Shown: positions 3,273 to 37,871, numbered from the stretch's first letter. The stretch: 64,000 nt of DNA from Patescibacteria group bacterium (GCA_041671225.1 JBAZBY010000001.1:763454-827453), one strand, 5' to 3'. A program made the numbers and translations. The notes: generated by a model from the sequence alone, not told the origin.

Positions 3273-3274
3273 CT

Positions 3275-4195
3275 ATGTGGCATACCACTAAACGCGCATT
3301 TCTCTTTGCTGGTCAGAATTTCATACGAAATTTCTGGCTCTCTTTGGTAACGCTGCTGATTATGGTGCTCACATTGTTCATGATAACAACACTTGCGGGC
3401 GTGCAGCTTGTTTCGACTGAGGCGATTCGCTCTGTTGAAAATCAAGTGGATGTGACGGTGTACTTTGAGCCAGAGACTCCGGAATCTGTGGTATTTGATG
3501 TGCAGGAAGGTTTGCTTGCTGATAGTCGCGTGGAAGGCGTTCGTTTTGTTTCCCGTACAGAGGCTCTAGCGGAATTCAGGGAAAAAAATCAGGATAATCC
3601 ACTACTTCTTGACGCTATTGAGGCATTAGAGACAAACCCACTTGGTCCAACACTTGTTGTGAAGGCAGTGCAGCTTGCTGACTATGCAGAGATTCTTAAA
3701 GCGCTTGAAACCGAGGATGTCTCTCGTTTTATTCAGGATGAAGGAAGAGACTTTGAAGAAACAGCACTTGTCGTTGAGCGGCTTTCTGGCATCACTGACC
3801 GACTACGTCAGATCGGCCTCATTGTGTCCTCGGTGTTTGTGTTGATCGCGATGATGATGACGGTGAACACTATTCGTATTGCGATTTACACGCACCGCGA
3901 GGAAATAGCCATCATGAAGCTTGTGGGCGCAACAAATGGTTTTATACGCGCACCATTTATCATTGAGTCTCTGTATTATGCGGTGCTCGGAGCGATCATT
4001 ACGACGCTGCTTTTCCTGCCGATGATCGGCCTTGTTGACGCGTGGCTTGGTGGTTTTTTTGCCGGTTATGAACTCGGCGTGGTTGAACTCTTACAAAACA
4101 ACCTGCTCTGGTTTTTCCTGGGGCAGCTGGCCTTTGCGGTTTTTCTTTCTGCGCTTTCAGCGGCAATTGCTGTTGGCAGGTACTTGCGAGTTTAA
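3275..4195 (+). CDS. ftsX: cell division permease FtsX
   Basis: The gene is adjacent to ftsE. The product has an N-terminal TM helix, a periplasmic domain and three C-terminal TM helices (FtsX topology). Confidence 0.75.
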   Translation: MWHTTKRAFLFAGQNFIRNFWLSLVTLLIMVLTLFMITTLAGVQLVSTEAIRSVENQVDVTVYFEPETPESVVFDVQEGLLADSRVEGVRFVSRTEALAEFREKNQDNPLLLDAIEALETNPLGPTLVVKAVQLADYAEILKALETEDVSRFIQDEGRDFEETALVVERLSGITDRLRQIGLIVSSVFVLIAMMMTVNTIRIAIYTHREEIAIMKLVGATNGFIRAPFIIESLYYAVLGAIITTLLFLPMIGLVDAWLGGFFAGYELGVVELLQNNLLWFFLGQLAFAVFLSALSAAIAVGRYLRV

Positions 4196-4554
4196 AAGTA
4201 GCTTTTGTCTTCTGGTGCCTGCGCTTTCGTTATAACCTCCTGCACGTCTGGCGGATAGATTTTTGTGATGCAAAATATTCCCGATGTTGTTTTCTTTTCA
4301 GCGTGAATGGTTTGTTCCAGTATATGCGCTTCTCCCCAGAAGAGCCATTTGCCGTCGATGTTCTGAACAAGATGCACGCGTACTGGCGCGGGCTGGTACA
4401 GCCGCATATCCTTTTTCTCAAATGGGAATGTCATGCCAGAAAAATCCTCAGTGGTGAAAGGCGTCTGCAGATGCTTCTCCAATATAAGCGCAGCAGGAAA
4501 TCCTTGTTCCTGCGTTATCTGCAATGTGTCGTTTATTTCGATAAAGCTACCCAT
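4192..4554 (-). CDS. hypothetical protein
   Basis: A 120-aa ORF with no recognisable motif. Confidence 0.35.
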   Translation of the reverse strand: MGSFIEINDTLQITQEQGFPAALILEKHLQTPFTTEDFSGMTFPFEKKDMRLYQPAPVRVHLVQNIDGKWLFWGEAHILEQTIHAEKKTTSGIFCITKIYPPDVQEVITKAQAPEDKSYF

Positions 4555-4761
4555 TAACGACTTATCAACATAAATCCAAGCAGCATGAGACTCGCAAGAA
4601 CGCAGAGACTGATAAGGTGACTATCTTTTGCTAGTGGATTTTCCATGAGAATAGTATAGCGTTTTTTTGTGTCCCCGCAAATGAGAGGGTTTGGTGTCAC
4701 GCTTGCGGCACGTGGCTTTGCTCGCCATGAACCTGAACGAACGGAGTGAGTGAATGGTTTA

Positions 4762-4774
4762 TGGCTCGGGGACA
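4762..4774. repeat. 13-nt direct copy (TGGCTCGGGGACA) of the tRNA-Gln 3' end; candidate distal att/direct repeat of the island
   Basis: Identical to 12127-12139 (the reverse complement of the tRNA 3' terminus including CCA). A chance 13-mer match within 64 kb is unlikely (about 0.002). Confidence 0.55.
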
Positions 4775-4989
4775 ACTTGTCCGCCTCTGGCGGAGGGATT
4801 TATCGCCTCGCCCCGCGCCTAGCGGTGCTCGTTGTCCGGGGCAGCAGTGAACGCTGCGCCAGCTCGCGTTCCCTGATCGCTCGCCGTCGCCACGCCTTCG
4901 GCAAGTGGCTTGGCTCGCTTCTGCCCGGTTCGAATCCTCCATAAACAAAAAAGGTTCTGCCGCCCGCAGACGGGCGCCAAAACCTTTTT

Positions 4990-5177
4990 GGCTCTCTTTA
5001 CTGTGCGCCGCGCGAACCTATTTTGAGACGCAGGAAGGAAAAAACGGGGAAAAATGAAAAAATCTTCTCTTGGAGGGGCGGGGCGGAATTCCCCCCAAAC
5101 CCCCCTTCCGCCCCGCCCCTTTTCTTGGGCGCGAAAATCTGAGAGTACGAAGATCTTTGTTTTACTACCGTCGCTTC
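4990..5177. repeat. 188-bp inverted repeat, arm A (perfect reverse complement of 10276-10463)
   Basis: Verified by direct reverse-complement comparison. It contains the GGGGCGGGGCGGAATTCCCCCCAAACCCCCCTTCCGCCCCGCCCC G-rich palindrome. Confidence 0.9.
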
Positions 5178-5302
5178 ACCCTTCGTGCTTGCTCAGTGCT
5201 TGCTTCGTGTTCGTTCGGTGGTGTCCATGGTAACTCTTTGTGCTTACCCCACCCGCCCTGTGAGCGCGTAAACCCGTCCGCTAACGCGGACGACTCCTTT
5301 AA

Positions 5303-7666
5303 TTAGTATTTTTGATAAATGGTGTTAAAGTCTGTAATTTTTCCTTTAAGCTGTGAAAGGCCGTGGTCGTCGCCCACATCAACATGAGAAGTAGTCCAAT
5401 TACAAAAAGAATATATATTCTTGATCTTATCCAAATCGTCGTCAGAAACTTGCTTATTTGTTTTTATGCCATCTACAACTTTTGGAAAGTCCTGCAATAC
5501 ATCAAGGTGTAGGAGACGGCATTTAATAAAGTTTTCAGTCTCGTATCTTAAATATTGGCCATACTCAACTATTTGAAGTTCAACATCAAAACCATTCTGG
5601 TTTTGTCCAAGTTGCAATAAATGTTCCTCAAAGTTGGTAAGTTTTTCAATGAACCTTTGCGTCATGCTTTTACAAATAAAGCTCCCGCCAAATCTCTTTT
5701 CGTTTCTTAGAATGTTGTATTCAAGTGATTGATCGCGGAATTTTTTGCGCAGAAACTTAAAAAATGTTCTGTGGTGAGTAAAAACAAATGTTTGTGAGAA
5801 TTTGTCTTTTTCAGTAGCAATCAAATCTACCAAGCTACTCAAGTTGCTATCGTCTAAACTTGTAATAGGATCGTCAAAGATAAGAATTTTCTTATCCTCA
5901 TCTTTCTGAATATCAAGGAAGGCAAAAAAGAAGCAGAGTGATAGAACCTGTATCTCGCCTTCCGACAGTCCTTCTTTAAGATCTCTTTCGGTCCCGTCAG
6001 AATCAATGACCCTAAACGCTAAAGGCAACTCTTTTGTAGAACCTGTGTGGCGATTGTCTGTATCAAGTTCTAAAGTAAAACTAAATTTGAAATTGCTAAA
6101 ATAGGATTCAATTTTTCGGAGTGTTTTTTTAAAAGCACCCTTAGCGCAATACTCCTCGTAGGATTCTCTTGCTATTTTGTGGGCTTCTCGTGCCTTCTCA
6201 AGCGACCTTATTAACTTGTTTAATTCTTTTAGTTGTTGGAGTTTGAACTTATTACTTTCAATCTTATTACTATTGATAAACCCCAACTCCCGCTCAATAT
6301 CATTCAAATTTCTTTGATTCTTTTCGATTCTACCAGCTAATTTTTCATCAGTATGCTCCTTTTTGAAATTTCTAATAAGCTTATTCTTGGCTTTTACAAA
6401 GCGCGCAAGTTCTAAAAAATATTTTTTTAGATTACTAAACTCATCTCGCGCCTCGCCAAACAGAATGGATATATCCTCTTTGGTAGGTTTCCCAAGATTA
6501 ACAAGTTTTGTTTTTAACTCGCCGATCTTTTTTAGGGTCGGTAATTTTCTAAAATATTCCTCCTTTTCTATGTCGTAAAGTCCTTTTATGGTATATTGTT
6601 CAACGAGCTTCTTCATTTTGATAAAATAATCGTCCAACTCAAACTCGTTGAGTGCCTCTTGTACTTGTTCCAGCTCTGCTATTAAGGTTTCCTTGTATTT
6701 TTCAAACTGACCCTCCTGCTCCTTATAAGATTCATCATAAATTTGATTGTAAGTTTTGACTATCTGTTTTATTTCTTCCTCTCTATTTTGCGTCCCGCAA
6801 AACGGGCATTGATTTGGGTGTTCATCTCTTACATCAAACCCCATTTCAAAAAATTCTTTATGTTTTTTAATCTGCTCAACCAAACTACGCTCGGCCTCCA
6901 CTTTTGCACGCTCTTTTAGTTTGAAATTAAAAACTTTCTGATAGGAAGTTTTTGAGGAGAGGTTAAACTCGATATCAACTTCCTCTAATTCTTGTATGAC
7001 TTGAACTTCCCTCGTCTTTTGCAAGAGCTGACTATCAAGTTCTAGTTCGTTGGACAAATCCACCCTCTTTTGACCGAGTTCTTCCCTTATGTTCTTAGTA
7101 GTATTTTCGTCCTTTCGTTTATACTTTCTAAAAAGTCTTTCCCCATCTTCATCTAATTCAAAACCAAGAACCCGTTTATTGCTTGTCTTAAAGTCATCAA
7201 GTTTCTGATTTTTCTCCTCCTTTATTCCAGCCAATCTATCCCTAACCTTGCGAAGTTCAATGGCATCGCCGTCAAACTCTATGACGAGGTTTCCGGATTC
7301 TTGCTCCTGTTCACCTTGCTGTGTACCTCGTTCACGGCCAAGATGAACATGCCTATCCACAAATTCCCGGTCAAAAAATAATATAGAATCTTTCGGAATA
7401 TAATCATCCCACTTATCCTCAGTGCGAGTATATTTATACCTCTTACTATCAATCAATACTTGCGCTTCTTCAGGGTAGCATTTAGTAAATTTTTTATTTT
7501 GAGATACGCTTTTAAGAATGTTACAAATTGAACTTTTTCCGCTTCCGTTCTCGCCATATAAAATGTTGGTCTTTTGGTGGAAATTCTCGGTATTAAAAAA
7601 ATTATGCCAAGAAAAATCTTGGAATGATTTATAACTTTTTATCTTCTTGATTTGCTTGAGTTTCAT
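5303..7666 (-). CDS. AAA_13-family ABC-type ATPase with a long coiled coil and Rad50-like CxxC zinc hook (RloC/PrrC-like; candidate anticodon nuclease or defence ATPase)
   Basis: Walker A GENGSGKSS at the N-terminus. A lysine/glutamate-rich coiled coil of about 450 aa has CPFCG at its centre. Walker B ILIFDDPITSLD and the H-loop FTHH follow. A C-terminal extension of about 170 aa contains RLLH. The gene is AT-rich (about 35% GC). Confidence 0.65.
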   Translation of the reverse strand: MKLKQIKKIKSYKSFQDFSWHNFFNTENFHQKTNILYGENGSGKSSICNILKSVSQNKKFTKCYPEEAQVLIDSKRYKYTRTEDKWDDYIPKDSILFFDREFVDRHVHLGRERGTQQGEQEQESGNLVIEFDGDAIELRKVRDRLAGIKEEKNQKLDDFKTSNKRVLGFELDEDGERLFRKYKRKDENTTKNIREELGQKRVDLSNELELDSQLLQKTREVQVIQELEEVDIEFNLSSKTSYQKVFNFKLKERAKVEAERSLVEQIKKHKEFFEMGFDVRDEHPNQCPFCGTQNREEEIKQIVKTYNQIYDESYKEQEGQFEKYKETLIAELEQVQEALNEFELDDYFIKMKKLVEQYTIKGLYDIEKEEYFRKLPTLKKIGELKTKLVNLGKPTKEDISILFGEARDEFSNLKKYFLELARFVKAKNKLIRNFKKEHTDEKLAGRIEKNQRNLNDIERELGFINSNKIESNKFKLQQLKELNKLIRSLEKAREAHKIARESYEEYCAKGAFKKTLRKIESYFSNFKFSFTLELDTDNRHTGSTKELPLAFRVIDSDGTERDLKEGLSEGEIQVLSLCFFFAFLDIQKDEDKKILIFDDPITSLDDSNLSSLVDLIATEKDKFSQTFVFTHHRTFFKFLRKKFRDQSLEYNILRNEKRFGGSFICKSMTQRFIEKLTNFEEHLLQLGQNQNGFDVELQIVEYGQYLRYETENFIKCRLLHLDVLQDFPKVVDGIKTNKQVSDDDLDKIKNIYSFCNWTTSHVDVGDDHGLSQLKGKITDFNTIYQKY

Positions 7667-7692
7667 CTTCCGGTCATGGCAAGGACGTCTTG

Positions 7693-8862
7693 TTACCGAT
7701 TTCCTTTTGCTCTATTGTGTGTTTTACACAGCATCTCACAATTCTTCGCCGAAGTAGCACCGCCCTTGCTCCACGCTGATACATGGTCTGCTTCCATTTC
7801 GCCAAAACCCCAAATCTTGCTTTTGTTAGCATCATGCCCAACGGCGCAAAGCGAGCAGTTTGACTTCTCTTTGGTTTCAGCCTCTTTGGTTTGTTTAGCA
7901 TAAACAGATCGTTTGGTCGCCTCATCAAAAAATCGGACATCTAGCAATTTTGTATCAACGGAGCCACCGAGAATGTATTCAAAAATGCCTCTGCGATTTT
8001 TGATATACGGATCACCATAGAGCTTATGCACCTCAGCCGATACTTTGGCTGGGTTATATGATTTTTTGTGATACTCCCCGTAAAGTCGTCCCCATTCAAG
8101 CCCGCGCATTTCGCTTTCTACGTCGGTAAATACGCCAGATACCCAATCAATGACGGTGTTAAAGTATTTTTTCAGCTCATCAATGTTTTTGTCTTTGCGA
8201 TGCTTGCTCATGTAATCGCCAATATTGCCTTTGCTAACCCAATCCAAAGCACATTCCAAAAATTCCTGTCGGTTCGCACTACCGGATACATATGCGCTCC
8301 ATTTTTGAATGTTGGCGTTTTGGCTATTGCTAAATTCTTCTTTAGCCCTAGTTACGAATGGACCGGAATACACGGCGTTGAGTAACTCCTGATTATTAAG
8401 TGGAACACCAGCAATATTTATGGTCTTGAACCATTCTTTTATCTGACTCTCTGTTCCTTCACATTCGTAAATGAGTAGTTTCGTTTCCAAAATCTTGGCT
8501 TGTTTGTCTTTTGCCATGCCACCAAAGTATTGTTCCATGCCATTTTCGTCCTTGATGGCAAATTTGTCCGTGATAAATCGTCCGAGACTTGTGATGCGCT
8601 GTTGTCCATCTAAAACTTCTAGGTTGTCGGCGGAGACGATATTAAAATAAATCAATCCGATTGGGTATCCCTTGAGAACTGATTCGATGACGGCCATTTC
8701 TCTTTTTCCGCCATCAGATGCATAAATATAATTTCGTTGATACTCCGGTTGGATGGTAAGCTTGCCAGACAAGCCAAACAGACCCTTACCCTCAAGTTCG
8801 TTATAGACAAATCCGTCACAGATCTCTTGAACAGTTACATTGGTTTTTAGGGTTGTTTTCAT
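7693..8862 (-). CDS. DUF262 (ParB-like NTPase/nuclease) domain fused to a C-terminal HNH nuclease; GmrSD-like type IV restriction enzyme candidate
   Basis: The N-terminal DGQQR motif ([13 protein letters not shown]) is typical of DUF262. The C-terminal HNH motif is CSLCAVGHD...[11 protein letters not shown]...[15 protein letters not shown]. Confidence 0.7.
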
Positions 8863-10275: not shown

Positions 10276-10463
10276 GAAGCGACGGTAGTAAAACAAAGAT
10301 CTTCGTACTCTCAGATTTTCGCGCCCAAGAAAAGGGGCGGGGCGGAAGGGGGGTTTGGGGGGAATTCCGCCCCGCCCCTCCAAGAGAAGATTTTTTCATT
10401 TTTCCCCGTTTTTTCCTTCCTGCGTCTCAAAATAGGTTCGCGCGGCGCACAGTAAAGAGAGCC
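10276..10463. repeat. 188-bp inverted repeat, arm A' (reverse complement of 4990-5177)
   Basis: Perfect match over 188 bp. The likely promoter region of the HTH gene lies inside this arm. Confidence 0.9.
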
Positions 10464-10531
10464 AGCTCATACTTCTGGAATTTTCCGCCAAAATTTTCCA
10501 CGGCTTTTCCCAAGTCCACAGGGGCTTTCTG
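10459..10531. repeat. 73-bp inverted repeat, arm B (reverse complement of 12060-12132), with an imperfect extension to about 10557
   Basis: Verified by reverse-complement comparison. It shares the 5-nt GGCTC core (10459-10463) with arm A'. Confidence 0.85.
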
Positions 10532-10677
10532 CCAAGGAGGAGGCGGTTCGTGGCACGGAACGTGCCACCAAGGAATTTCTAAAAAACACATATTAGAAAT
10601 TTCTTGGTTCCAATGTTTTCCACGTTTCCGCCAAAGGCGGAAAGACGAAGCAAGATTTATTCTTCTGGCGAATCCCT

Positions 10678-12159
10678 ATGACATATTTCCTCTACGCAAG
10701 AAAATCCAGCGAGGACGAAGAACGCCAAGTGATGTCCATAGAGGCACAGCTTGTTGAATTGGAACAATTTGCAAAACGTGAGAACCTCACGATTGCCAAG
10801 CAGTTTGTGGAGAGTAAAAGTGCAAAAGCACCCGGCCGCGAAGTGTTCAACCACATGCTTTCCGCAATCTACAAAAGCAAGGAACCCGTTGGCATTCTTG
10901 CGTGGCATCCGGATCGTCTCGCGCGCAATTCCGTTGACGGCGGCCAAATCATTTATCTCGTTGATACTGGGAAGGTCATTGCGCTCAAGTTCCCGACATT
11001 TTGGTTTGAACCAACGCCGCAAGGATTGTTCATGTTGCAGGTGGCATTCGGGCAATCGAAATACTATTCAGACAACTTGTCCGAGAACGTAAAACGCGGG
11101 ATTCGCCAGAAGCTCCGCAAAGGAGAATGGCCCGGCCCTGCGCCGTTCGGATATGTGAATAATCGAAACACGCATAGTATTGATCCGGATCCGGTGAAAG
11201 CAAAAATCGTCCGGCGTATCTTTGAGGAGTATGCAACCGGAGAATACAACCTCCGCACGATTGGAGAACACTTTGCACTCTGGGGCGTGGTGAGCGCGTC
11301 CGGCAAACCTTTGGCAAAATCCACCCTGAAGCATCTGCTTACGCACCAAGCATATATTGGAACGATTATTTGGAGTGGTGAGCCGTATGAAGGTTCATTC
11401 CCGCCGTTGGTGCCAAAGGACGTGTTTGAGACCGTCCAGCACGTCATAAAAAGCCAAGAGAAGCGCAGGTACGTCCGCCGGAAGCATGATTTCTCATTCC
11501 TTGGCCTATTCCGCTGTGGAGAATGCGGCGGGGCGATTACGGCTCAACTTGCCAAGGGAAACGGCGGCACATACCGCTATTATCGTTGCACCAAAAAGTT
11601 TGGCCTGTGTAAACAGGGTTACATTCAGGAAAGTGATTTTGCAGTGCTTTTGAGAAAGGAAGTTAATCGTGTTGCGATTAACGAGCAGTGCGCCTCGCGC
11701 ATGCTTGAACAAGTGAAACTGTGGGAACGTGAAGAAAACGTTGATGGCGAAAAACATACGCGCGAAAGAAAAACGAAGTTGGAAGTGATTGACCAAAAAC
11801 TTGATACCCTCGTTAACGCCTTTCTTGAAGGTACGTTAGAAAAGGAAACCTACCTCAAAAAGAAAGCCGAACTAATTGACGCCAAAGCTGGCCTTCGGGA
11901 AGAAAAGGTATCTTTACAAGCGCGAGGCGCACAATGGATCGAACCACTACGAAACTGGATAAACCGCGCTCACCACGCCCAAAATCTTGCTTCGTCTGAT
12001 GATTTGAGCAAACTCAAATCATTCGTGGAAAACATTGGAACGAACCGCCTCCTCCTCGACAGAAAGCCCCTGTGGACTTGGGAAAAGCCGTGGAAAATTT
12101 TGGCGGAAAATTCCAGAAGTATGAGCTGGCTCGGGGACAGGGATTCGAACCCCGATTGA
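10678..12159 (+). CDS. large serine recombinase (integrase/resolvase family)
   Basis: The N-terminal resolvase catalytic domain is YARKSSEDEERQVMSIEAQ...AWHPDRLARN. A recombinase domain and a zinc ribbon (CGECGG...YYRCTKKFGLC) follow, then a C-terminal coiled coil. The last 33 nt overlap the tRNA 3' end and the att arm, so the true stop may lie earlier. Confidence 0.85.
   Translation: MTYFLYARKSSEDEERQVMSIEAQLVELEQFAKRENLTIAKQFVESKSAKAPGREVFNHMLSAIYKSKEPVGILAWHPDRLARNSVDGGQIIYLVDTGKVIALKFPTFWFEPTPQGLFMLQVAFGQSKYYSDNLSENVKRGIRQKLRKGEWPGPAPFGYVNNRNTHSIDPDPVKAKIVRRIFEEYATGEYNLRTIGEHFALWGVVSASGKPLAKSTLKHLLTHQAYIGTIIWSGEPYEGSFPPLVPKDVFETVQHVIKSQEKRRYVRRKHDFSFLGLFRCGECGGAITAQLAKGNGGTYRYYRCTKKFGLCKQGYIQESDFAVLLRKEVNRVAINEQCASRMLEQVKLWEREENVDGEKHTRERKTKLEVIDQKLDTLVNAFLEGTLEKETYLKKKAELIDAKAGLREEKVSLQARGAQWIEPLRNWINRAHHAQNLASSDDLSKLKSFVENIGTNRLLLDRKPLWTWEKPWKILAENSRSMSWLGDRDSNPD
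12060..12132. repeat. 73-bp inverted repeat, arm B'; abuts and includes the last 5 nt of tRNA-Gln
   Basis: Perfect reverse complement of 10459-10531. An imperfect extension runs from 12033 to 12059. Confidence 0.85.
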
Positions 12160-15456: not shown

Positions 15457-15635
15457 ACCTTTTGCCCGCGCAACAGACTCATTGTTTTGCATCTGCCAGA
15501 GCCGCAAGAAGAGGTTTTTTGGGTATTGACATACGCGATAAGAAGTGTAGTGTCCTATTGCAGTTTACGCGCAATCCCGTCCAAAGGGGTTGATTTCAAT
15601 GCCCTTTGACAGGTGAAAAACCTGGAGAAGGGGGG

Positions 15636-17786: not shown

Positions 17787-17889
17787 TTTCTTTAGGCAGG
17801 TTTTCTGCCATAGGTGGGGTCGTGCGCATGCGCGACTCCACCATTTTTGTATGCTTGAAAAATCAGCGGAAATACGCGATGATACGTAC

Positions 17890-19653
17890 ATGCGTATTTT
17901 CCGCTTTGTACTTCCATCAATTGTTCTGTGTTTGTTATTACTGCTGCCGTCTGCTGCGCATGCCGGTGAAAATTCTGAATATGGCGCCACGACCATTGCA
18001 ACAAGCAGGGGTGCGTTTGGTATCCATTATGTTCGCATCAGTCTCGCCAATCCCAATTTGCGCATATACTCTCTCACCGGCACTTCCGGGACTTGCACCC
18101 AGTGCGTCACCAAACCGCTCGCAAGCTATGTACAGGAGGTGAATGGTTTTGCCGGCATCCACGGGAGCTACTTTTGCCCGTCAGATTACGCGTCGTGCTC
18201 CGGTCAGGAGGGTTCATATTATTGGATGTGGTACAACACGCTCACCAAGATCATGGCCAATGCAACGCAGAATCAGTACAACACCGGCGGCTCGCTCGTT
18301 GCGTTCGATGCGAACAACACCGCGCACGTCTACCGTACCGCACCGGGGTTTGCGTCCAAGGATGCGTTTGAAGACCAGTACGGCGCCACATTGCAGGCAT
18401 TGTTCTCCAACGGTCCGGGACTCATCTACAATGGCGAGAACATCACCGAGACGTTCGGACTTGATGAAAAGCAGCGCACGGTGAAGGGTGCTCGCGGCGG
18501 CGTGGGGTTCAAGGGTAATGATATGTACTTGGTGATCGCATCCGGTGCGACGGTCATCGACCTCGGCGCCATCATGCAGACCATGGGCATGTCCTATGCG
18601 GTGAATCTGGACGGCGGGGGAACGTCTGCGCTTTGGTATGACGGCGGATATAAAGTGGGGCCGGGGCGCAACATGCCAAACGCCATCGTGTTCGCAGAAG
18701 CGGGCAGCGCCACGCCGGCACCCACTGCAGCAAAGGGCACCGGATTCTTTGCATACAGCGAGCAGCTCCGCGGCGGCTTTGATGTTGCAAGCGGGAACGT
18801 GACCGGGGACAGCGCGGATGAGATCGTCATGGGAACGAGCAGCGGGTTCGGGCCGCATGTGCAGGTGCTGAACGCCGAGGGCACAGTGCGCTCGTCATTC
18901 TTCGCGTTCAATGATGCGCATCGCAACGGCGTCCGCGTGGCGGTGTGTGATGTGGACAACGACGGCATTGGCGAGATCCTTGCTGCAGAAGGCCCGGGCC
19001 AGCTTCCGCGCGTGCGCATCTTCACGGCCGCGGGCGCGCTCATTCGCGAATTCCCCGTGCTTGACGGCCGCTTTACCGGCGGGGTGCATGTGTCCTGTGG
19101 GGACACGGATGGCAATGGCACGCCGGAGGTCATTGCTTCCGCAAGTCCCGGGGGCGGTCCGCACATCATGGTATACACCGCGACCGGGAAGGCAATTGTG
19201 AACTTCTTTGCGTATGACCCGTCATTCCGCGGCGGCGTGAACGTGATGGCAACGGACATCGATGGGGACGGTCATGATGAGATCGTCACCGGTCCGGATG
19301 TGGGCGCACCGCACGTGCAGATATTCCAGATACGTCCGGGCGGCGTGCACAGGCTTTCTCCGGGGTTCTATGCCTATGATCAGTCATTCCGCGGCGGCGT
19401 TGATGTTGCCGGTGCAGATCTGGATGGCGACGGCGTGCAAGAACTCATTGTTGCGCCTGGCACAGGGTTAAGCCCGCTCATCAAGGCATACACCATCCGC
19501 GAAGTGCTGACAGATTCCTTTTATGCGTTCGCACCAACCTTCCTTGGCGGAGTGAACATGGCCGGCGGAGATGTGAATGGGGACGGTAAAGATGAGGTGA
19601 TCATCGTGCCGCGCAGCGGCGGCGGACCGCAAGTGCGCAGCATCTCGCGGTAG
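17890..19653 (+). CDS. secreted phosphodiester glycosidase-family protein with C-terminal FG-GAP/VCBS-like repeats
   Basis: The signal peptide is MRIFRFVLPSIVLCLLLLLPSAAHA. The central glycosidase segment (GIHGSYF...VNLDGGGTSALWYDGG) is followed by six or more repeats of the DxDxDGxxEI form (DVDNDGIGEIL, DTDGNGTPEVI, DIDGDGHDEIV, DLDGDGVQELIV, DVNGDGKDEVII). Confidence 0.55.
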   Translation: MRIFRFVLPSIVLCLLLLLPSAAHAGENSEYGATTIATSRGAFGIHYVRISLANPNLRIYSLTGTSGTCTQCVTKPLASYVQEVNGFAGIHGSYFCPSDYASCSGQEGSYYWMWYNTLTKIMANATQNQYNTGGSLVAFDANNTAHVYRTAPGFASKDAFEDQYGATLQALFSNGPGLIYNGENITETFGLDEKQRTVKGARGGVGFKGNDMYLVIASGATVIDLGAIMQTMGMSYAVNLDGGGTSALWYDGGYKVGPGRNMPNAIVFAEAGSATPAPTAAKGTGFFAYSEQLRGGFDVASGNVTGDSADEIVMGTSSGFGPHVQVLNAEGTVRSSFFAFNDAHRNGVRVAVCDVDNDGIGEILAAEGPGQLPRVRIFTAAGALIREFPVLDGRFTGGVHVSCGDTDGNGTPEVIASASPGGGPHIMVYTATGKAIVNFFAYDPSFRGGVNVMATDIDGDGHDEIVTGPDVGAPHVQIFQIRPGGVHRLSPGFYAYDQSFRGGVDVAGADLDGDGVQELIVAPGTGLSPLIKAYTIREVLTDSFYAFAPTFLGGVNMAGGDVNGDGKDEVIIVPRSGGGPQVRSISR

Positions 19654-19656: not shown

Positions 19657-19730
19657 TCTGTCATTCCCGCCCCGGCCTTCGCCGGGGTAAAATTCAGCGG
19701 GGATCAATGTATTCTGTCACCCCGAAAGCC
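19657..19730. repeat. interspersed palindromic repeat element (TGTCATTCCCGC...hairpin variant)
   Basis: ttctgtcattcccgccccggccttcgccgggg...ctgtcaccccgaaagc. It is a member of the family seen at 21947, 23836 and 25212. Confidence 0.55.
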
Positions 19731-19771
19731 TTTCTGTGGTATGATAGAGCAGGTTTCTTCTTCGAGGCATT

Positions 19772-21919
19772 ATGCTGAATCCAATGGTCACAGAGGCGAC
19801 AAAAACACGACGGAAAATCTCTCAACGCGTGAGCATGATGCTGGTGCTTGGATTCGGCGCGATGGCCGTTGCCGCGCTCGCACTCAGTATCCGTGCCATT
19901 CCGTCCGGCAAGTCCGCCGCACGCGTGGTCTCCGTGCATGAGCGTCTTGTAATTGCCGCAGAGAATATCCAGAATGCCGCAGCCGCTGGGCGCCAGAATG
20001 AGGCAGTGCAGTTTGCACAGAAGAGGCGCATGCTGCTGGCAAATCTTGCAAAGCGCAGTCCGCAGCAATTCCGCATTGAAGCCATCGCAACCGCGCCTGA
20101 CGGTGCATCATTGCCAGCGGACGTTGTGGCGCTCACGGAAACCGCGGAAACCCTCACCGGAACCGTCGCCCGGTATCTTTTTGATGACAGTGAAAACCAG
20201 ACTTCCGCTTTTTATACAACACTGCTGACCGATACAGGGGTGCCATATGTGATGATCGGCGAGGATGCCGCGCTTTCCGCGCTCGACACCGCGCAACGCG
20301 CGACCATCACCGGGATCGCGCTCCCGGCAAGCGATACGGAGGGCGCGTTGCTCATTCCCAATGCCGCAGATGGCATCACTGTTGATAAGGAGCTCCTCCT
20401 CACTGCGACTGCCGAGGCAGGCACGGTGAGAACCCAGCGCGTGCTCGCGCTGTTGATGACCTTCCACAACGACCACAGAGAACCCCGCACCCGCGAAGAG
20501 ATAAGTACGACGATGTACCAAGGACTCATCAGCCTCAGCCAGAGCGCGTATGATCGTATTCAGTTCACCTGGGAGAGCCCCGGAGATATCATTGGCTGGT
20601 TCGATGCGCGCGATGCATCAGGCGCGGTGGACCTGCCGACGGTCTGCCCGCCCGGAGGCGCGCTTGCATTCGCCGATGATCTGCTCTCCTGGGCACAGTT
20701 CGGCGCGCAGGATGCAACGGGAGAGAGCATCGATCTCTCACAGTATGACCAAGTGCTGGTCTTCAGCGGCAACGGGAGCCTTCCCTGCAGTTTGCCGACC
20801 GCCTTCACGCGCTATGTCGGCAATACGCAGCACTTCTTCAAGGGGATCTCGGATTTTCTGATCTCCCACGAGGTCGGGCACGGGCTTGAACCCGGTATCG
20901 GCGTGGATCATTATGATTTCTATGCGTGCCCGAGCACCGGCGGCACCCAACAGACATTCACGGATTCCTGTAATAAGGTGGATTACGGCGGCGTGTATAG
21001 CATCATGGGAATGCAGGCAAATGAACTTGGTGCCCAGCACAAAGAACGCCTCGGCATCTTTACCAATGAAGAGATCGCCATTGCCGATGCACCCGGGGTG
21101 TATCAGTTGGTGGGGATGAGCGATACCACAAAGCTGGGGTATCGGACGCTGAAAATCCCGCGGGTCTTCTATCCGCCGGATTTCAGCAATCCGCAATACC
21201 AAAATAAAGTGAGCGAATGGTTCTATCTTGAGTACCGGCCGCGTGTTCGCATGGACAGCACCGTCCCTGCGCAATGGGAAAACGGCGTGCTCGTGTATTA
21301 CAACAGAGCGTCAATACCCCGTTCGGAATCCAGTCTCTTGGATATGCACCCCTCAGGAACGGTGCCCGCAGGCGTCGGCGCAGCGCAGACGGCATTGCAG
21401 GATGCGGCACTCGCAACCGGAGAAAGCTGGACGGATCCGTTGGGCTCGGGCGTGACCATCACCACGCTCGGACTGAACGCCGCGGGATACATGCAGGTGC
21501 AGGTGAGTTATCCGGAGAAGACTGGCCATGGATGCGTTCTTGCTGCACCGACCATCGACGTCGGCAGCGGTTCTGTGATGTACGCGTCAGGCGCAACCGA
21601 GGTGAATATCGGCGCGCGCATCGTCAATAATTTTAAGGAGCAGGAAAACGGATATTGCCCGGCGAAGTTGACTGCGACGTTCACCAAGCCCGTCGGGTTT
21701 GCAGTGCCTTCAAATTCCTATTTAACGCAAACCATACATATTGCACCAGGAGAGAGCAGCTCCGTGAGTACCAAGCTCACGCCTCCCAGCCGTGGCAGTA
21801 CAACGCCATCACTGGTCCACATCACTGTCCAGCCGCTGGGAATTTCCGGGTATGCGGCAAGCGCGGATGTGTCCGTGAGCATGCAGAGCGAACCCACCCA
21901 GCACATCCAGCAGGAGTAG
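19772..21919 (+). CDS. zinc metalloprotease-like protein (HExxH), membrane-anchored or secreted
   Basis: An N-terminal TM helix (MMLVLGFGAMAVAALALS) is followed by the HExxH motif ISHEVGHGLEPG. Confidence 0.5.
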   Translation: MLNPMVTEATKTRRKISQRVSMMLVLGFGAMAVAALALSIRAIPSGKSAARVVSVHERLVIAAENIQNAAAAGRQNEAVQFAQKRRMLLANLAKRSPQQFRIEAIATAPDGASLPADVVALTETAETLTGTVARYLFDDSENQTSAFYTTLLTDTGVPYVMIGEDAALSALDTAQRATITGIALPASDTEGALLIPNAADGITVDKELLLTATAEAGTVRTQRVLALLMTFHNDHREPRTREEISTTMYQGLISLSQSAYDRIQFTWESPGDIIGWFDARDASGAVDLPTVCPPGGALAFADDLLSWAQFGAQDATGESIDLSQYDQVLVFSGNGSLPCSLPTAFTRYVGNTQHFFKGISDFLISHEVGHGLEPGIGVDHYDFYACPSTGGTQQTFTDSCNKVDYGGVYSIMGMQANELGAQHKERLGIFTNEEIAIADAPGVYQLVGMSDTTKLGYRTLKIPRVFYPPDFSNPQYQNKVSEWFYLEYRPRVRMDSTVPAQWENGVLVYYNRASIPRSESSLLDMHPSGTVPAGVGAAQTALQDAALATGESWTDPLGSGVTITTLGLNAAGYMQVQVSYPEKTGHGCVLAAPTIDVGSGSVMYASGATEVNIGARIVNNFKEQENGYCPAKLTATFTKPVGFAVPSNSYLTQTIHIAPGESSSVSTKLTPPSRGSTTPSLVHITVQPLGISGYAASADVSVSMQSEPTQHIQQE

Positions 21920-21946
21920 GGGTTTTTCAGCCAACGCGTGCTTTTC

Positions 21947-22014
21947 TCCCTCTGTCACCCTGAGGTTTCTTGCTCTGTCATTCCCGCGAAAGCGGGAATC
22001 CAGGAGTTGATTTT
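21947..22014. repeat. interspersed palindromic repeat element
   Basis: ctctgtcaccctgagg...ctctgtcattcccgcgaaagcgggaatccaggagttgatttta. Confidence 0.7.
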
Positions 22015-22041
22015 AGCCGGAAAATGAAGGATGATGAAGCA

Positions 22042-22785
22042 ATGAACGGTACACGGATCATATCACAGGAGCGGCGCAAATTTATTTCCCCAATGTTCCT
22101 GTTAATATTCATACAGGGGCTGCGGTTTCTCGTTGACGCACAGTATATCTGGGCGGGTCTGCTCATGGCCGCTGGCGTGCTTGGGTATATTGCATACAGA
22201 ATATATTGGAAGGATGCAGAGCCACATTTGCTGCAACAGATCGCACAGCAGTACCACCTCACCGTGCACCAAACGCCCTCGGTTCCAGAGGCCTGGCGAG
22301 AAACAGTCCTCATGACAACGCTGCGTCCGCGGAAAATGTATACGGCCGAAGGCACCATCGAGGGGCACGCTGTTGTGCTCGGTTTTGTGATGGGAACCCA
22401 TGAGAAACGTTCGTTGCTCAGCCGTAAGGTGCAATGGCGCGAGGATTTTTATATCGGCATACGGATCGCACAGGATATTGCGGGATGGCTCGTCGTGGAT
22501 CAGGGCATCCGTGATATTCAAGGCATGGGGACGCGCGTGCAATTGGAAAGTAATGACCTGCACAAGAAGGTGAGCGTTCTTGTTTCAAGTCCACCGCTTG
22601 CCCCGCACATCCTGGACCCGAACGCGATGGCGCTGCTGCTCGATTGGGAATTCTTGCCGGACGTTGAGATTCGGGATTCGCTCGTACTCCTGCGTCTGGA
22701 AATTTCCCGCTATCACCATCGCAAACTGGACTTCCATATCCACAACGCCCTCCGCCTTGCCGCGCAGGTCGAGCGGAATGTGTAG
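22042..22785 (+). CDS. hypothetical membrane protein
   Basis: N-terminal TM helices (FLLIFIQGLRFLV..., WAGLLMAAGVLGYIAY) are present. The listed ORF start at 21970 lies inside a repeat element, so the true start is probably further downstream. Confidence 0.4.
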   Translation: MNGTRIISQERRKFISPMFLLIFIQGLRFLVDAQYIWAGLLMAAGVLGYIAYRIYWKDAEPHLLQQIAQQYHLTVHQTPSVPEAWRETVLMTTLRPRKMYTAEGTIEGHAVVLGFVMGTHEKRSLLSRKVQWREDFYIGIRIAQDIAGWLVVDQGIRDIQGMGTRVQLESNDLHKKVSVLVSSPPLAPHILDPNAMALLLDWEFLPDVEIRDSLVLLRLEISRYHHRKLDFHIHNALRLAAQVERNV

Positions 22786-22792
22786 CATCCCG

Positions 22793-22822
22793 TGGAGTTG
22801 ATTTTACGGGGTAAATGGGGGA
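22793..22822. repeat. partial repeat element tail (GGAGTTGATTTTA...AAATGGGGGAT)
   Basis: It shares the 3' tail of the repeat family, including a pseudo-start ATGGGGGAT. Confidence 0.45.
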
Positions 22823-22887
22823 TTAAAGGAGCTGATTCTGTACAATATAGTGAATCTATGTCATTTTTTGTTTATATTCACTCTATA

Positions 22888-22916
22888 TTGACAAAATAGC
22901 GTGAATAGAATATACT
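22888..22916 (+). promoter_or_regulatory. promoter (TTGACA-17-TATACT) of the Fic gene with a flanking inverted repeat; leaderless start
   Basis: ATATAGTGAAT...ATTCACTCTATAT forms an inverted repeat around the -35 box. The ATG lies 7 nt after the -10 box. Confidence 0.5.
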
Positions 22917-22922
22917 GTCTAT

Positions 22923-23813
22923 ATGGCTACCTCCAATCCCTTTCGTCGTCGTATCAAAGAACTCAAAGAAGAGTTCGACCGTTTGCGTCCGGGCAAGGAA
23001 TCCTTGCTGAACATCATTGATGAAGCAGAGTTGCCGGAAAGCGTGTATAACTCGAACGCGATAGAGAATTCCACGCTGACACTGAAGGAAACCGAGAAGA
23101 TCCTTCTGCAAATGGAGCTTTCGCGCGAGGTGGACCTGCGGGAAGTCTTTGAAGCCAAGAACCTGGCACGCGTCATGGAATATGTCCGTGGCAAAGCGGC
23201 GCAGTCGGAGATCACCAAAGAGCTGATGCTTCTCCTGCACCAGATGTTGCTCCTGAACATCAAAGACGCCATTGCCGGGCGGTTCCGGCAAAAGGGCGAG
23301 TATGTCCGCATCGGTACGCATATTGCCCCTGCGCCAGAAAAGGTGGAACAGATGATTGATGCACTCTTGGTCGATTTTTCCAGCGATCAGGAAAGCTATG
23401 TGACAGACAAGATCGCCAGATTCCATTTGGATTTCGAGACCATCCATCCCTTTAACGACGGCAATGGACGCATTGGCCGCGTGCTCATGAATTTCCAATT
23501 CCTCCGCTTTGGTTTTCCTATGGTGGTCTTGCGCGATAAGGAGAAGCGAGCGTACTACCGCGCGTTCCAGGAATATGAAGGTACAAAGGCAACAAAGCCG
23601 ATGGAGCGGTTCGTTGTGCTCGCGCTCATTGAATCACTGCATAAGCGGGTGACATATCTGCGCGGTGAAAAGATCATCGCCTTAGCGGAGTATGCAAAAA
23701 TACATGCACAAAAAATGCCTGCATTGTTGAACGCCGCACGTCGTCAGACCATCCCAGCATTCCGCGAGCGCGGCGTTTGGAAGATCGGTGCGGAGTATAC
23801 GAATGCAGAGTAA
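22923..23813 (+). CDS. Fic-family protein (AMP-transferase) with an intrinsic inhibitory helix motif
   Basis: The Fic motif HPFNDGNGRIGR is present. An N-terminal SNAIEN matches the (S/T)xxxE(G/N) inhibitory motif. The ATG lies 7 nt after the -10 box, so the mRNA is leaderless. Confidence 0.85.
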   Translation: MATSNPFRRRIKELKEEFDRLRPGKESLLNIIDEAELPESVYNSNAIENSTLTLKETEKILLQMELSREVDLREVFEAKNLARVMEYVRGKAAQSEITKELMLLLHQMLLLNIKDAIAGRFRQKGEYVRIGTHIAPAPEKVEQMIDALLVDFSSDQESYVTDKIARFHLDFETIHPFNDGNGRIGRVLMNFQFLRFGFPMVVLRDKEKRAYYRAFQEYEGTKATKPMERFVVLALIESLHKRVTYLRGEKIIALAEYAKIHAQKMPALLNAARRQTIPAFRERGVWKIGAEYTNAE

Positions 23814-23835
23814 TACAATCGAGCGCCCAGCTTTC

Positions 23836-23898
23836 CCTCTCTGTCATTCCTCCCACTTGTCATTCCCGCGCATGCGGGAATCCAGGAGTTGATTTTGT
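23836..23898. repeat. interspersed palindromic repeat element
   Basis: tctctgtcattcctcccacttgtcattcccgcgcatgcgggaatccaggagttgatttt. Confidence 0.7.
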
Positions 23899-23905
23899 CT
23901 GCGCA

Positions 23906-24523
23906 ATGTTAGATGATGTCCCCATGCACACACCCATCACCGCCGCCATCTTTGATCTCAACGGCGTCTTTATCGTGAGTCCAAAACTGTCCGACCGCTT
24001 TGCGGAAGTCTATGGCGTGCCGCAGGAACAATTCCTGCCCGCCTTGCAGCATGTGCTGGATGTTGCGCGCATGCCGAATGCCGGCAGCAGCTTCGCACTC
24101 TGGAAGCCATATCTGGACCAATGGCATGTTGAACTTTCTGAGCAGGCGTTCTTCGATTTCTGGTTCTCAGCAGAGCAGGAGAACACGGCCATGATAGCGC
24201 TTGCGCGGGAATTAAAGGATCGTGGTATGCGGCTATTTGTGCTTTCCAATAACTTCCGCGAGCGCACGGAGTATTACCGCAGCCACTTCCCATTCCTCGC
24301 AGAATTGTTCACGTTTATATATTTTTCTTGGGAGCAGGGGTATGTGAAGCCGGACCCGCGTGCCTGGGAATGGCTCATCCAGAACACCGGCGTGGTTCCC
24401 AACGAGACACTGTATATGGATGACAAAGAGGAGAATTGCACCGTGGCGGCGAGTTTGGGTTTTTCGGTATTGGGAGCGATGGATACAGAGGAAATTCGGA
24501 AAGTGGTGGGGATTGAGGGTTGA
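23906..24523 (+). CDS. HAD-superfamily hydrolase
   Basis: AAIFDLNGVFIV is motif I. The listed ORF start (23777) lies inside the repeat element, so the ATG at 23906 (MLDDVPM) is preferred. Confidence 0.6.
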   Translation: MLDDVPMHTPITAAIFDLNGVFIVSPKLSDRFAEVYGVPQEQFLPALQHVLDVARMPNAGSSFALWKPYLDQWHVELSEQAFFDFWFSAEQENTAMIALARELKDRGMRLFVLSNNFRERTEYYRSHFPFLAELFTFIYFSWEQGYVKPDPRAWEWLIQNTGVVPNETLYMDDKEENCTVAASLGFSVLGAMDTEEIRKVVGIEG

Positions 24524-24536
24524 AAAAGTGGGGGAT

Positions 24537-25187
24537 ATGCGCGATGATTCCCCCATGCTTCTTCTCTGTTCAAACGGCCCGGTCGCCCTGAAAGCGATCC
24601 CGGGCATACTCGGCACACCCGTGCAGGATATCCGCCTGCTCTACGTGTTCACTGCCGCCAAGGTGGCACGGGACCGGACGTATCTTGGGCCGGTGGAGGC
24701 GTGTCTTCAAGAGATGCCATACCAGCTCCGCCGCTTTGATATCCAAGGGAAGACGGAGCAGGACATCGATGCGGCGCTTGCGGCCTGTGATGCCGTGTAC
24801 GTGGAAGGCGGCAATCCGTTCTTCCTTCTGCAGGCCGTTCGGGACAGCGGGTTTGCACAGGCAGTACAACGCTTTCTTGCACAGGGGAAGCTGTATGCCG
24901 GTGCCAGCGCTGGTGCATATATCGCATGCCCCACCATTGCCATGGCAACATGGAGAAAACCGGGGGATGAAAAACCGCAGCATGGCGTCACGGAGTATAC
25001 CGCGATGCACCTTGTGCCGTTCCTTGTTGTGGCGCATTACACCCCCAAGCGTGCGGATGACGTGCGGAATGGCATGCAGCACACCACGTTGCCGGTCCGC
25101 CTTCTGCAGGATGGCCAGGGTCTGTTGGTGAATGATGATGGCAGTGTGGAGTTTTTTGGAGAAGGGGAAGAGGGGCGGTTGGAGTAA
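24537..25187 (+). CDS. peptidase S51 (dipeptidase E/cyanophycinase-like) family protein
   Basis: The VYVEGGNPFFLLQAVRDSG...YAGASAGA core is S51-like. The start is chosen after the upstream gene, because the longer ORF (24360) overlaps it. Confidence 0.55.
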   Translation: MRDDSPMLLLCSNGPVALKAIPGILGTPVQDIRLLYVFTAAKVARDRTYLGPVEACLQEMPYQLRRFDIQGKTEQDIDAALAACDAVYVEGGNPFFLLQAVRDSGFAQAVQRFLAQGKLYAGASAGAYIACPTIAMATWRKPGDEKPQHGVTEYTAMHLVPFLVVAHYTPKRADDVRNGMQHTTLPVRLLQDGQGLLVNDDGSVEFFGEGEEGRLE

Positions 25188-25211
25188 GGTGCGCCCTCCT
25201 TTCTGTCATTC

Positions 25212-25335
25212 CCGCGTAGGCGGGAATCCATCCGCTCTGTCATTCCGGCCTTGAGCCGGAATCCATTCATTTACTTTACCCGCCGGAGCGAAGCGTAGGA
25301 GGGTTGATTTTAAGGGGGAAATGGGGGATGATGGA
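25212..25335. repeat. interspersed palindromic repeat element (two hairpin units plus tail)
   Basis: ctgtcattcccgcgtaggcgggaatcca and ctgtcattccggccttgagccggaatcca are followed by agggttgattttaagggggaaatgggggatgatgg. Confidence 0.7.
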
Positions 25336-25935
25336 TTTATGACTGAGGTCTATTCACTTATTAAGGGAGTTGTAAAGAAGATTCGCGATGGACTTTTTTT
25401 GGCATCTAGTAGGACGACCGGGGAACAATACATAGAACCCTTTATTCGCAAGAAATATAATCTTAAAGATCCGACGGGCAATGACTATGATGGGATGGAT
25501 CAAGCGGGAAAAAAATACGAGATTAAGACGTGCAAAGTTTTAAGGGAGACAGGAAACGACAAAAAAACAAAATCCATTCTAGATCGTATACTTTTTGAAA
25601 GTACAAATTTAGAAACGAAAAGGCTCGTGGTTTTTAGGGACCGCGAAACGGCAAAGTACTTAGCAAATGTTCAAAACGTCAAGAGGGATCATTTTGATTA
25701 TCTCATCTACGTTTTACTATTTGCGGACTGTGTGAAAATATTTTGGGCCAAGAGGGAAGAGATTAACACCAAAGATTTTTCTCGTTGGAGTGACAAGCAT
25801 GGTCGCTATGATGCACTTGGTAAGAGTGGTCAATTTGGGATAGATAAAAACAATATATGGTGGCATCTGCAGAATCATCTCAAAGACACTGTATCCTATG
25901 ATGAAATGAGAAAAGTGTATACTGAGCTCTCCTAA
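25321..25935 (+). CDS. putative type II restriction endonuclease (PD-(D/E)xK-like), cognate of the downstream methyltransferase
   Basis: A small AT-rich ORF joined to the methyltransferase by a TAATG junction. The candidate catalytic motif is D(YDGMD)...KYEIKTCK. Confidence 0.4.
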   Translation: MGDDGFMTEVYSLIKGVVKKIRDGLFLASSRTTGEQYIEPFIRKKYNLKDPTGNDYDGMDQAGKKYEIKTCKVLRETGNDKKTKSILDRILFESTNLETKRLVVFRDRETAKYLANVQNVKRDHFDYLIYVLLFADCVKIFWAKREEINTKDFSRWSDKHGRYDALGKSGQFGIDKNNIWWHLQNHLKDTVSYDEMRKVYTELS

Positions 25936-36809: not shown

Positions 36810-36892
36810 GTGTACGAAGTTCGTTGTATTGTGCAGGCTGGTCCTCTTATTGAGGACCGGCCTGCTTTTCCTTCTCTTGCTTTTGACCTAGA

Positions 36893-37871
36893 AATGCGGG
36901 ATTATTCCCTTATGCGCTCCCATACCATAAAGCAGCCCTGGATTGTTCGTGCTTCTGCTATTCATGGCAAGGGTGTGTTTGCGCACCGCGCCATCAAAAA
37001 AAATGAGGAGGTTTTTACCGTGGAGGGACCCAAGATTACCTACCCGGATGAGCCGAACTGGCGCATGGGGCCGGACTGGCTGCATGTCGGGCGGAACACA
37101 TACATCATCGCGTATCCGGATAATCCATGGATTTTTATCAATCACTCCTGTGATCCGAATGCATTGGTAACCAGAGAGTGCCGTGTTGTTGCCCTGCGTC
37201 CACTTCACCCTCGGGAGGAAGTGACCATTGACTACGCATTTGTTGAGGCTGGCACGCAATGGCGTATGCACTGCACCTGCGGTTCTGCACAGTGCCGGCA
37301 TGAGATACGCGGCGTACAGTACCTGCCGAGCCGCAGCGTTCTGCGGTATAAGAACCGCATGCTCCCGTACCTGTACCACGTGTTCCAGCGCCAGAAGGTG
37401 GAGACAATCCGTCGTGGAACGCAGACGTTATTGATTGCCAAGCAAACACTGCACCGCGGCGAGACCGCCTTTGTGGTTGAAGGGCCGGAGATTCGCTATA
37501 CGCTTCCCCCAAACTCACGCCGCGGTTTCTACTGGCTTGGGATCAGTAAGAATAAATGGCTGATTCCGTACCAGAATAATCCATGGAATGTGATGAGGCA
37601 CTCCTGCATGCCGAATGTTGGCATCACGGATGCACATCATGTGAAGGCGCTCTGCACCATCCGTCGCGGTGAAGAGATTACCATTGATGATTCCATCACA
37701 GAGGCAGACCCCAATTGGCAGGTCCAGTGTGTCTGTGGTTCCCCTCACTGCAGAAAGATTGTCCGTTCTATCAATTTTTTGCCGCCCGCATCATTCCGCC
37801 GTGCCATGCCATACATTCCGAGTTATATGCAAAAGGCGTATCGCGCTGCACAAAAAGACATTTTCCCTTGA
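36893..37871 (+). CDS. tandem SET-domain protein (putative protein-lysine methyltransferase)
   Basis: Two SET cores are present: FINHSCDPNA...EEVTIDY and MRHSCMPNV...EEITIDD. Each is followed by a Cys cluster (CTCGSAQC, CVCGSPHC). Confidence 0.65.

Follow-up and report, generated by a model that had tools for sequence, protein, structure and literature searches.

The 64,000-nt stretch of a Patescibacteria group bacterium analysed here (GCA_041671225.1, JBAZBY010000001.1:763454-827453; hereafter the window) carries a cluster of short intergenic palindromes between positions 19,657 and 25,335, several of which are followed by a characteristic sequence tail. The palindromes are with good confidence DNA hairpins of the family formed by the Neisseria Transformation Sequence (NTS) and the Ssn-related motif (SRM), and the tail a separate, predicted promoter for leaderless genes. 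As the hairpin family was published in 2025, the new aspect is its host, a metagenome-assembled genome of the Patescibacteria (Candidate Phyla Radiation, CPR), and a Patescibacteria genome can be added to the hosts of the Ssn-related motif. The original prediction had joined hairpin and tail into one repeat of the miniature inverted-repeat transposable element (MITE) or repetitive extragenic palindromic (REP) type.

Hairpin copies and their motif family

Reading of the window together with pattern searches located four perfect 8-bp hairpins and one complex copy, all on the + strand and in intergenic gaps (Table 1), so that an interspersed family of intergenic palindromes, as originally described, is present far above chance. 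A search for CTGTCATTCCCGCG with at most two mismatches gave eight matches in the window against 0.61 expected, and a combined hairpin and tail pattern gave two against 0.01 expected. Folded as single-stranded DNA (ssDNA), the four perfect copies form an 8-bp stem with a loop of 4-5 nt (z = -3.5 to -5.2). Furthermore, eight hand-picked copies were aligned, half of them from the window and half from a single GIY-YIG nuclease locus of an unrelated genome (L013); pairing is retained at every position, with compensatory changes in three pairs. Copy 4 is itself a compensated stem variant, ATTCCGGC / GCCGGAAT, with a 5-nt loop and with head and tail retained. In the complex copy the loop has received a 26-nt insertion containing a nested hairpin, CCCCGGC-CTTC-GCCGGGG, and the outer arms were paired by eye and not by minimum-energy folding; this copy begins 4 nt past the NAGPA/FG-GAP stop codon. 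Every copy points in the direction of transcription and lies between a stop codon, 4-56 nt away, and the promoter that follows.

The published family provides a close match. Chenal et al. (Nat Commun 2025; PMC11893778) define the NTS as CGTCATTCCCGCGMAVGCGGGAATCYRG and, in addition, the degenerate SRM. Copies 1-3 fit the SRM pattern, HGTCWYN(0-2)YYVSBRHN(0-5)WNVSBRGN(0-2)RNCYNB (three matches against 0.2 in shuffles), and copy 1, TGTCATTCCCGCGAAAGCGGGAATCCAG, is nearly the same sequence as the Neisseria NTS consensus, from which it differs by one mismatch, with up to one mismatch being accepted for an NTS. The cognate nuclease SsnA is a 94-aa single-domain GIY-YIG protein that binds the motif only as ssDNA and, in a strand-specific manner, nicks a few nucleotides upstream of it; cleavage depends most on the three nucleotides before the palindrome, and binding most on the C after it (PMC11893778). 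GTC precedes and C follows the palindrome in all five window copies. The 8-bp hairpin, the asymmetric GTC/C flanks, the intergenic site and the local clustering are thus common to the window and the published motif, and identical copies flank genes for GIY-YIG proteins of about 95 aa in other organisms. The phylum of the window host is unmentioned in the main text of the paper (PMC11893778). A related likeness is to the Neisseria dRS3 repeats and Neisseria intergenic mosaic elements (NIME), whose ATTCCC-N8-GGGAAT core is identical in three window copies and which, like the window hairpins, associate with variable genes (PMC11893778). In contrast to those repeats, RS-type mosaic blocks enclosed by inverted dRS3 pairs and an Nf-phage-type Piv recombinase are both absent from the window, whose copies lie in only one direction.

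The association between hairpin and GIY-YIG gene was reproduced in other genomes independently of the paper. A query made from a typical GIY-YIG sequence of about 95 aa returned thousands of relatives, and the residues Y7, Y18 and E65 of a 95-aa member correspond to SsnA Y6, Y17 and E64 shifted by one; neither NCBIfam nor the PDB offered an Ssn-specific name for the family. At L013, TGTCATTCCCGCGCAAGCGGGAATCCAG lies 9 nt 5' of the ATG (at 6038) of a conserved GIY-YIG protein, and inverted copies lie 3' of the gene. Annotated GIY-YIG proteins with over-long N-termini begin with MSFPRKRESR, with MNECHSRANGNP (CHSRANGNP) or with VIPAKAGIY. Since SFPRKRESR, CHSRANGNP and VIPAKAGIY are hairpin translations, the starts of these GIY-YIG genes have been mis-called. 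The window shows the same effect: the peptides quoted in the original prediction are indeed there, as products of repeat-derived pseudo-open reading frames (ORFs), with CHSRESGNP in ORF 21970, VIPAKAGIQ in ORF 21938 and GFRLKAGMTE...DSRLRGND in ORF 25037(-). Hairpins of this type therefore create spurious ORFs here and wrong start codons on GIY-YIG genes elsewhere.

At least 120 viral or proviral contigs likewise carry the exact motif. A GIY-YIG gene is present in six of the 120 viral or proviral loci among the matches listed, and most copies are therefore solo. Conservation ends sharply at (t)TGTCA...ATCCAG, that is, at ...GGAATCCAG (133 unique instances from other organisms among the matches listed). 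Consistent boundaries, one part of what the original prediction had proposed to look for, are thus found at TGTCA...ATCCAG, whereas no target-site duplication, the other part, is evident.

Table 1. Hairpin copies, head-only fragments and promoter-type modules in the window (positions from its first letter)
Feature	Position	Strand	Sequence or layout	Context
Hairpin copy 1	21976-22003	+	TGTCATTCCCGCGAAAGCGGGAATCCAG; from 21975, CTGTCATTCCCGCGAAAGCGGGAATCCAG	715-aa gene stop codon 56 nt 5'
Hairpin copy 2	23858-23885	+	TGTCATTCCCGCGCATGCGGGAATCCAG; from 23857, TTGTCATTCCCGCGCATGCGGGAATCCAG; loop CAT	Fic stop codon 44 nt 5'
Hairpin copy 3	25204-25231	+	TGTCATTCCCGCGTAGGCGGGAATCCAT; from 25203, CTGTCATTCCCGCGTAGGCGGGAATCCAT; loop TAG	S51 stop codon 16 nt 5'
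Hairpin copy 4	25238-25266 (listed 25237..25266)	+	TGTCATTCCGGCCTTGAGCCGGAATCCAT	six bases 3' of copy 3
Complex NTS-like copy	19658-19705	+	head CTGTCA, arms ATTCCCGC / GCGGGGAT, then C	
Head-only or decayed copy	19714..19731	+	CTGTCACCCCGAAAGCC	overlaps 715-aa gene promoter region
Head-only fragment	21952..21965	+	CTGTCACCCTGAGG	5' of full copy 1
Head-only stutter copy	23841..23850	+	CTGTCATTCC	6 nt upstream of copy 2
Hairpin-free module	17855..17892	+	TTGAAA-N17-GATGAT-N6-ATG	ATG 17890, NAGPA/FG-GAP gene
Predicted promoter tail	22007..22044	+	-35 TTGATT 22007-22012, -10 GATGAT 22030-22035	ATG 22042, 247-aa gene
Orphan tail	22798..22826	+	TTGATT-N17-GATTAA	no gene behind
Predicted promoter tail	23889..23926	+	TTGATT-N17-GATGAT-N6-ATG	ATG 23924, HAD hydrolase gene
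Hairpin-free module	24520..24557	+	TTGAAA-N17-GATGAT-N6-ATG	ATG 24555, S51 peptidase; overlaps HAD gene end
Predicted promoter tail	25304..25341	+	TTGATT-N17-GATGAT-N6-ATG	ATG 25339
Hairpin-free module outside the cluster	36877..36914	+	TTGCTT-N17-GATTAT-N6-ATG	ATG 36912, SET-domain gene

Head-only fragments beginning CTGTCAYYC accompany the full copies at 19714, 21952 and 23841. The fragment at 19714 resembles the ACCCCCGCG stem variant, of which the full form, TGTCACCCCCGCGAAAGCGGGGGTCCAT, is present in L013, and the one at 21952 aligns with CTGTCATCTTGAGC at the same site of a relative's locus, L008. Stutter copies, in which a few bases of 5' flank and the left arm TGTCATTCC(CGC) precede a full NTS, were seen in nine of the 143 instances listed. 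The viral or proviral loci with such copies include L117, L025, L033, L057 and L085, the window example lies at 23841-23857, and one viral or proviral locus has three tandem ttcgccTTGTCATTCCCGC units. Stutter copies may reflect the way in which the repeats are cut or copied. At L013 the NTS-flanked GIY-YIG gene lies inside a block resembling a mobile element (2668-8248), together with genes for a large serine recombinase, a D5-type primase-helicase and an HTH_17 excisionase-like protein. Of the Logan contigs (k=31), two start at or inside a hairpin copy: SRR6484324_18120, which by coordinate arithmetic starts exactly at 25204 (copy 3), and the locus of a close relative, L015, at its position 1. 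Such starts hint that the motif is multi-copy in those metagenomes.

The tail as a probable leaderless-gene promoter

Downstream of the hairpins, the GGAGTTGATTTTA tail runs into a fixed pattern of TTGATT, 17 nt, GATGAT, 6 nt and ATG, and GTTGATTTT tails stand at 22006, 22797, 23888 and 25303. The original prediction counted the tail as part of the repeat, which is contradicted by the end of conservation at ...GGAATCCAG in the 133 listed instances and by L015, where the tail stands without a hairpin. In L015, the same promoter modules lie on both sides of the ortholog of the 247-aa gene, with no hairpin upstream. Within the window, the module at 17855 is preceded by a canonical terminator (17813-17842) in place of a hairpin repeat, and its ortholog in L008 reads TTGATT-N17-GATGAT-N6-ATG. 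Hairpin and tail are therefore independent of each other. The "related tail" reported at 15586 shares only GGGGTTGATTTC with the others and was not counted as a tail, because it lacks the -10 box and the ATG spacing.

The distribution of the module points the same way. Tail-type modules number six plus one orphan in the window and six in 45 kb of close relatives, and unrelated NTS-bearing loci totalling 1.09 Mb have none. Scans for the 20-21 nt junction of hairpin and tail in 185,579 GTDB species genomes and in JGI metagenomes gave only chance matches in unrelated coding sequence, which indicates that the hairpin-tail composite is not a widespread element.

With 6 nt between the predicted -10 box and the ATG, transcription would begin at the start codon itself. 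This arrangement is common in the window: a -10-like hexamer lies 6-7 nt before the start-zone ATG in 16 of 59 ORFs, compared with 4.6% of internal ATGs, and the Fic gene at 22923 and the genes at 31192, 49258, 50746 and 56663 have a TAnnnT box exactly 6 nt 5' of the ATG and no Shine-Dalgarno sequence. The Fic gene has its own promoter, TTGACA-N17-TATACT-N6-ATG. Given the tail geometry and the leaderless boxes at many window genes, the tail is best read as a promoter for leaderless mRNA, and from its sequence it would fire as a lineage-specific promoter of the sigma-70 type. NCBI gene calls start at 22042 and 23924, in agreement with two of the modules. Promoters of leaderless genes have been described in Actinobacteria and Deinococcus-Thermus. 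Those of the window likewise have a -10 box ending 6-7 nt 5' of the ATG, no Shine-Dalgarno sequence and an arrangement common to many genes, and they include a sub-class with an unusually fixed spacer, TTGATTTTA..GGGGnAAATgGGgGATGAT, confined to the accessory-gene arrays of this lineage. A full-text literature search retrieved no paper combining the terms leaderless, Patescibacteria and promoter.

Some observations concern the module itself. The stereotyped form TTGATTTTA..GGGGnAAATgGGgGATGAT-N6-ATG heads many accessory genes in the lineage, at the window positions in Table 1 and at 48, 583, 1374, 2359 and 3877 of L015 and 12302 of L008. Its spacer is conserved far beyond the need of a sigma-70 promoter, which could reflect a dedicated regulator or sigma factor, or spread by recombination. 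The Fic promoter region (22835-22922) contains three GTGAAT(A) boxes, of which two form an inverted repeat; the boxes could be an operator for a Fic-associated regulator.

Several findings weigh against the assignment of the hairpins to the NTS/SRM family and of the tails to leaderless promoters. Copy 4, with its compensated stem, lies outside the published SRM pattern, and the complex copy, with its nested loop hairpin, likewise gives no SRM match. The copy number is low, at five hairpins in about 84 kb of source-genome sequence (the window and about 10 kb of flank on each side), all within 5.7 kb. The original statement that copies are absent from the rest of the window holds, and none was found in the flanks either. 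In the published survey, the association between motif and ssn is strongest in genomes with more than 200 copies, and species with more than 300 include a raised share of symbionts (PMC11893778). Furthermore, searches by regular expression, tblastn and a hidden Markov model built from 40 family members detected no Ssn-type GIY-YIG gene in the window, its flanks or the loci of relatives. As for the promoters, four modules offer a further ATG upstream in the same frame (M-x-D-D-x-x-M), and different gene callers place the start differently. In the Patescibacteria source organism, an Ssn may act on the window copies. One GIY-YIG gene, in the distant relative L016, was considered as an Ssn candidate and set aside, as it is of the UPF0213 (YhbQ-like) type and has no hairpins around it.

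Rearrangement among relatives and competing explanations

The gene order around the hairpins differs between relatives (L015, L008), a point that the original prediction had proposed to check for the genes flanking the copies. The 715-aa protein is 100% identical to WCV86_03780 ("Patescibacteria group bacterium", GCA_041665645.1), and the close relative L015 has 91% identity in the 247-aa protein. The 3' edge of the NTS, at GAGTTGATTTT, is exactly where homology between L015 and the window sets in, and the L015 contig itself starts inside a complex NTS with the same nested hairpin as the copy at 19658 and a GCCGGAATCCAT right arm. In the more distant relative L008 (73% identity), the gene order is rearranged, and a degenerate SRM-like element and a decayed NTS occupy the orthologous site. 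Together, the two comparisons indicate that hairpins are gained, lost and decaying within the lineage, coinciding with synteny breakpoints. The four perfect stems of the window, set against the decayed copy in the relative, suggest ongoing maintenance.

The orphan tail at 22798 has a counterpart in L015 that drives a leaderless SET-domain gene. In the window, Fic replaces the SET gene at the old site, and the SET gene stands at 36912 behind a related promoter. In L015 the SET gene follows the 247-aa gene (module 1374-1411), but in the window it lies 14 kb away, and the junctions of the move (22798-22830 and 36877-36914) fall inside a shared -10 box, GGGATTA. Judged from these junctions, the SET gene appears to have moved as if by recombination between promoter modules, and promoters, as far as sequence comparison tells, travel with their genes.

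For the hairpins as NTS/SRM-family motifs, a mechanism can be proposed by analogy. The + strand, when single-stranded during uptake, replication or transfer, would fold into the 8-bp stem with GTC on its 5' side and C on its 3' side. In the characterised systems, an Ssn of the GIY-YIG type and about 95 aa binds the stem and nicks a few nucleotides upstream, and such nicking modulates the recombination of incoming DNA. The window copies follow closely on the ends of accessory genes read in the same direction, at places where relatives have another gene order. Patescibacteria are generally thought to be attached to host cells and reliant on DNA uptake. A bolder extension, which is rather unlikely, holds that the accessory genes are single-gene cassettes, each with a near-identical 38-nt leaderless-promoter head and many bounded by hairpins, and that nicking of ssDNA at the hairpins, combined with homology between modules, would cause cassettes to be gained, lost and shuffled. 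It is prompted by the SET move with its junctions inside the -10 box, by the fusion of an AT-rich restriction-modification cassette exactly at an ATG (25339), and by the break of synteny with a relative exactly at the NTS 3' edge. If true, it would amount to integron-like gene capture without an integrase. The stereotyped promoter module with its cassette-like rearrangements is a more original lead than the hairpins.

The transposable-element interpretation, in which a transposase (IS200/IS605 TnpA or a REP-associated tyrosine transposase, RAYT) mobilises the hairpins as REP- or MITE-like elements, is very unlikely, even though it accounts for short, interspersed intergenic palindromes with tandem and partial copies at synteny breakpoints, and even though the Ssn paper itself likens the NTS-ssn-NTS arrangement to REP/RAYT (PMC11893778). 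REP sequences and bacterial interspersed mosaic elements (BIME) are likewise short intergenic palindromes, clustered and in tandem, and for each type the ssDNA form is recognised by a small nuclease encoded between such repeats. The partner, however, is a GIY-YIG and not an HUH Y1 enzyme, and the head is not of the GTAG type. The check for a cognate transposase came out negative: Pfam and NCBIfam sweeps of the window ORFs, together with precomputed Pfam matches of called genes in the window and flanks, revealed no Y1 or other transposase domain, IS200/IS605 TnpA and RAYT included. A MITE, which would be a non-coding element of 50-500 bp bounded by terminal inverted repeats and target-site duplications, was rejected because the unit of about 28-30 nt is itself the hairpin, encodes nothing and has no evident target-site duplication; the flanks of the window copies share no conserved sequence, nor do those of the 133 listed unique instances beyond the unit of about 28 nt. 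In place of the proposed MITE/REP type, the sequence belongs to the NTS/SRM family, which is partnered with a GIY-YIG nuclease gene.

A function mainly at the RNA level, with the hairpins as terminators, insulators or 3'-end stabilisers between tandem leaderless genes that need their own promoters, is improbable as the principal explanation. Their common orientation with transcription, their placement between stop codon and next promoter, the GC-rich stems (one with a GAAA loop), the terminator-like flag on copy 4, and a canonical terminator in the equivalent slot at the neighbouring type IX secretion system (T9SS)-tail gene junction all fit such a role. However, the T-run starts 4-8 nt past the stem, which is non-canonical, and terminator-like matches in the region number 8 against 8.2 in shuffles; on these two grounds, an intrinsic terminator was rejected as the main identity. 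A local terminator role would also leave unexplained the asymmetric flanks and the near-identity to Neisseria and to hundreds of unrelated contigs. As a secondary function it is plausible and compatible with membership in the NTS/SRM family, the hairpins perhaps serving in addition as weak insulators or at transcript ends.

Least probable, and hardly to be expected, is that the hairpins are sites for a site-specific recombinase (Piv/IS110-type, or the large serine recombinase at 10678-12159) in an integron-like cassette array. Here the precedent is dRS3, a known target of a phage recombinase (PMC11893778), and the array of gene, hairpin, promoter and gene in a single orientation, the serine recombinase 7.5 kb upstream and the difference in gene content at hairpin junctions between relatives would all agree with it. 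The window, in contrast, encodes no IS110/Piv or integron integrase domain, and an R/L core of the attC type is absent. The inverted repeats that belong to the serine recombinase (189 nt and 93 nt) are unrelated to the hairpins, and the junctions lie at the NTS 3' edge or inside the -10 box, with no one fixed crossover point.

Neighbouring cassette and defence island

At the last promoter tail of the cluster, the ATG at 25339 marks the exact point where a GC content of about 57% gives way to one of about 38% (window 25300-25400). From this ATG runs an AT-rich type II restriction-modification pair, consisting of a 198-aa protein weakly resembling restriction endonucleases and an Eco57I/TaqI-type N6 methylase. 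The coincidence of the GC drop with the leaderless ATG suggests foreign cargo fused precisely to a native promoter. An Rfam scan returned only tRNA and a sub-threshold C/D-box match caused by GATGATGA.

Further upstream, a 189-nt perfect inverted repeat (4989-5177 and 10276-10464) brackets a 5.1-kb AT-rich defence island that encodes an AAA_13 / PDC-S06-like ATPase, a GmrSD/HNH restriction endonuclease-like protein, an EcoRI-type methylase and an HTH protein. Around the large serine recombinase lies another inverted repeat, of 93 nt (10459-10551 and 12040-12132, 98% complementarity), which overlaps tRNA-Gln at its 3' end. The contig of one other assembly starts exactly at the arm edge at 10276. 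Of two further assemblies, one has a contig ending at 10342, inside this arm, and the other a contig ending at about 4901, roughly 90 nt short of the partner arm. This segment may be invertible or strain-variable.

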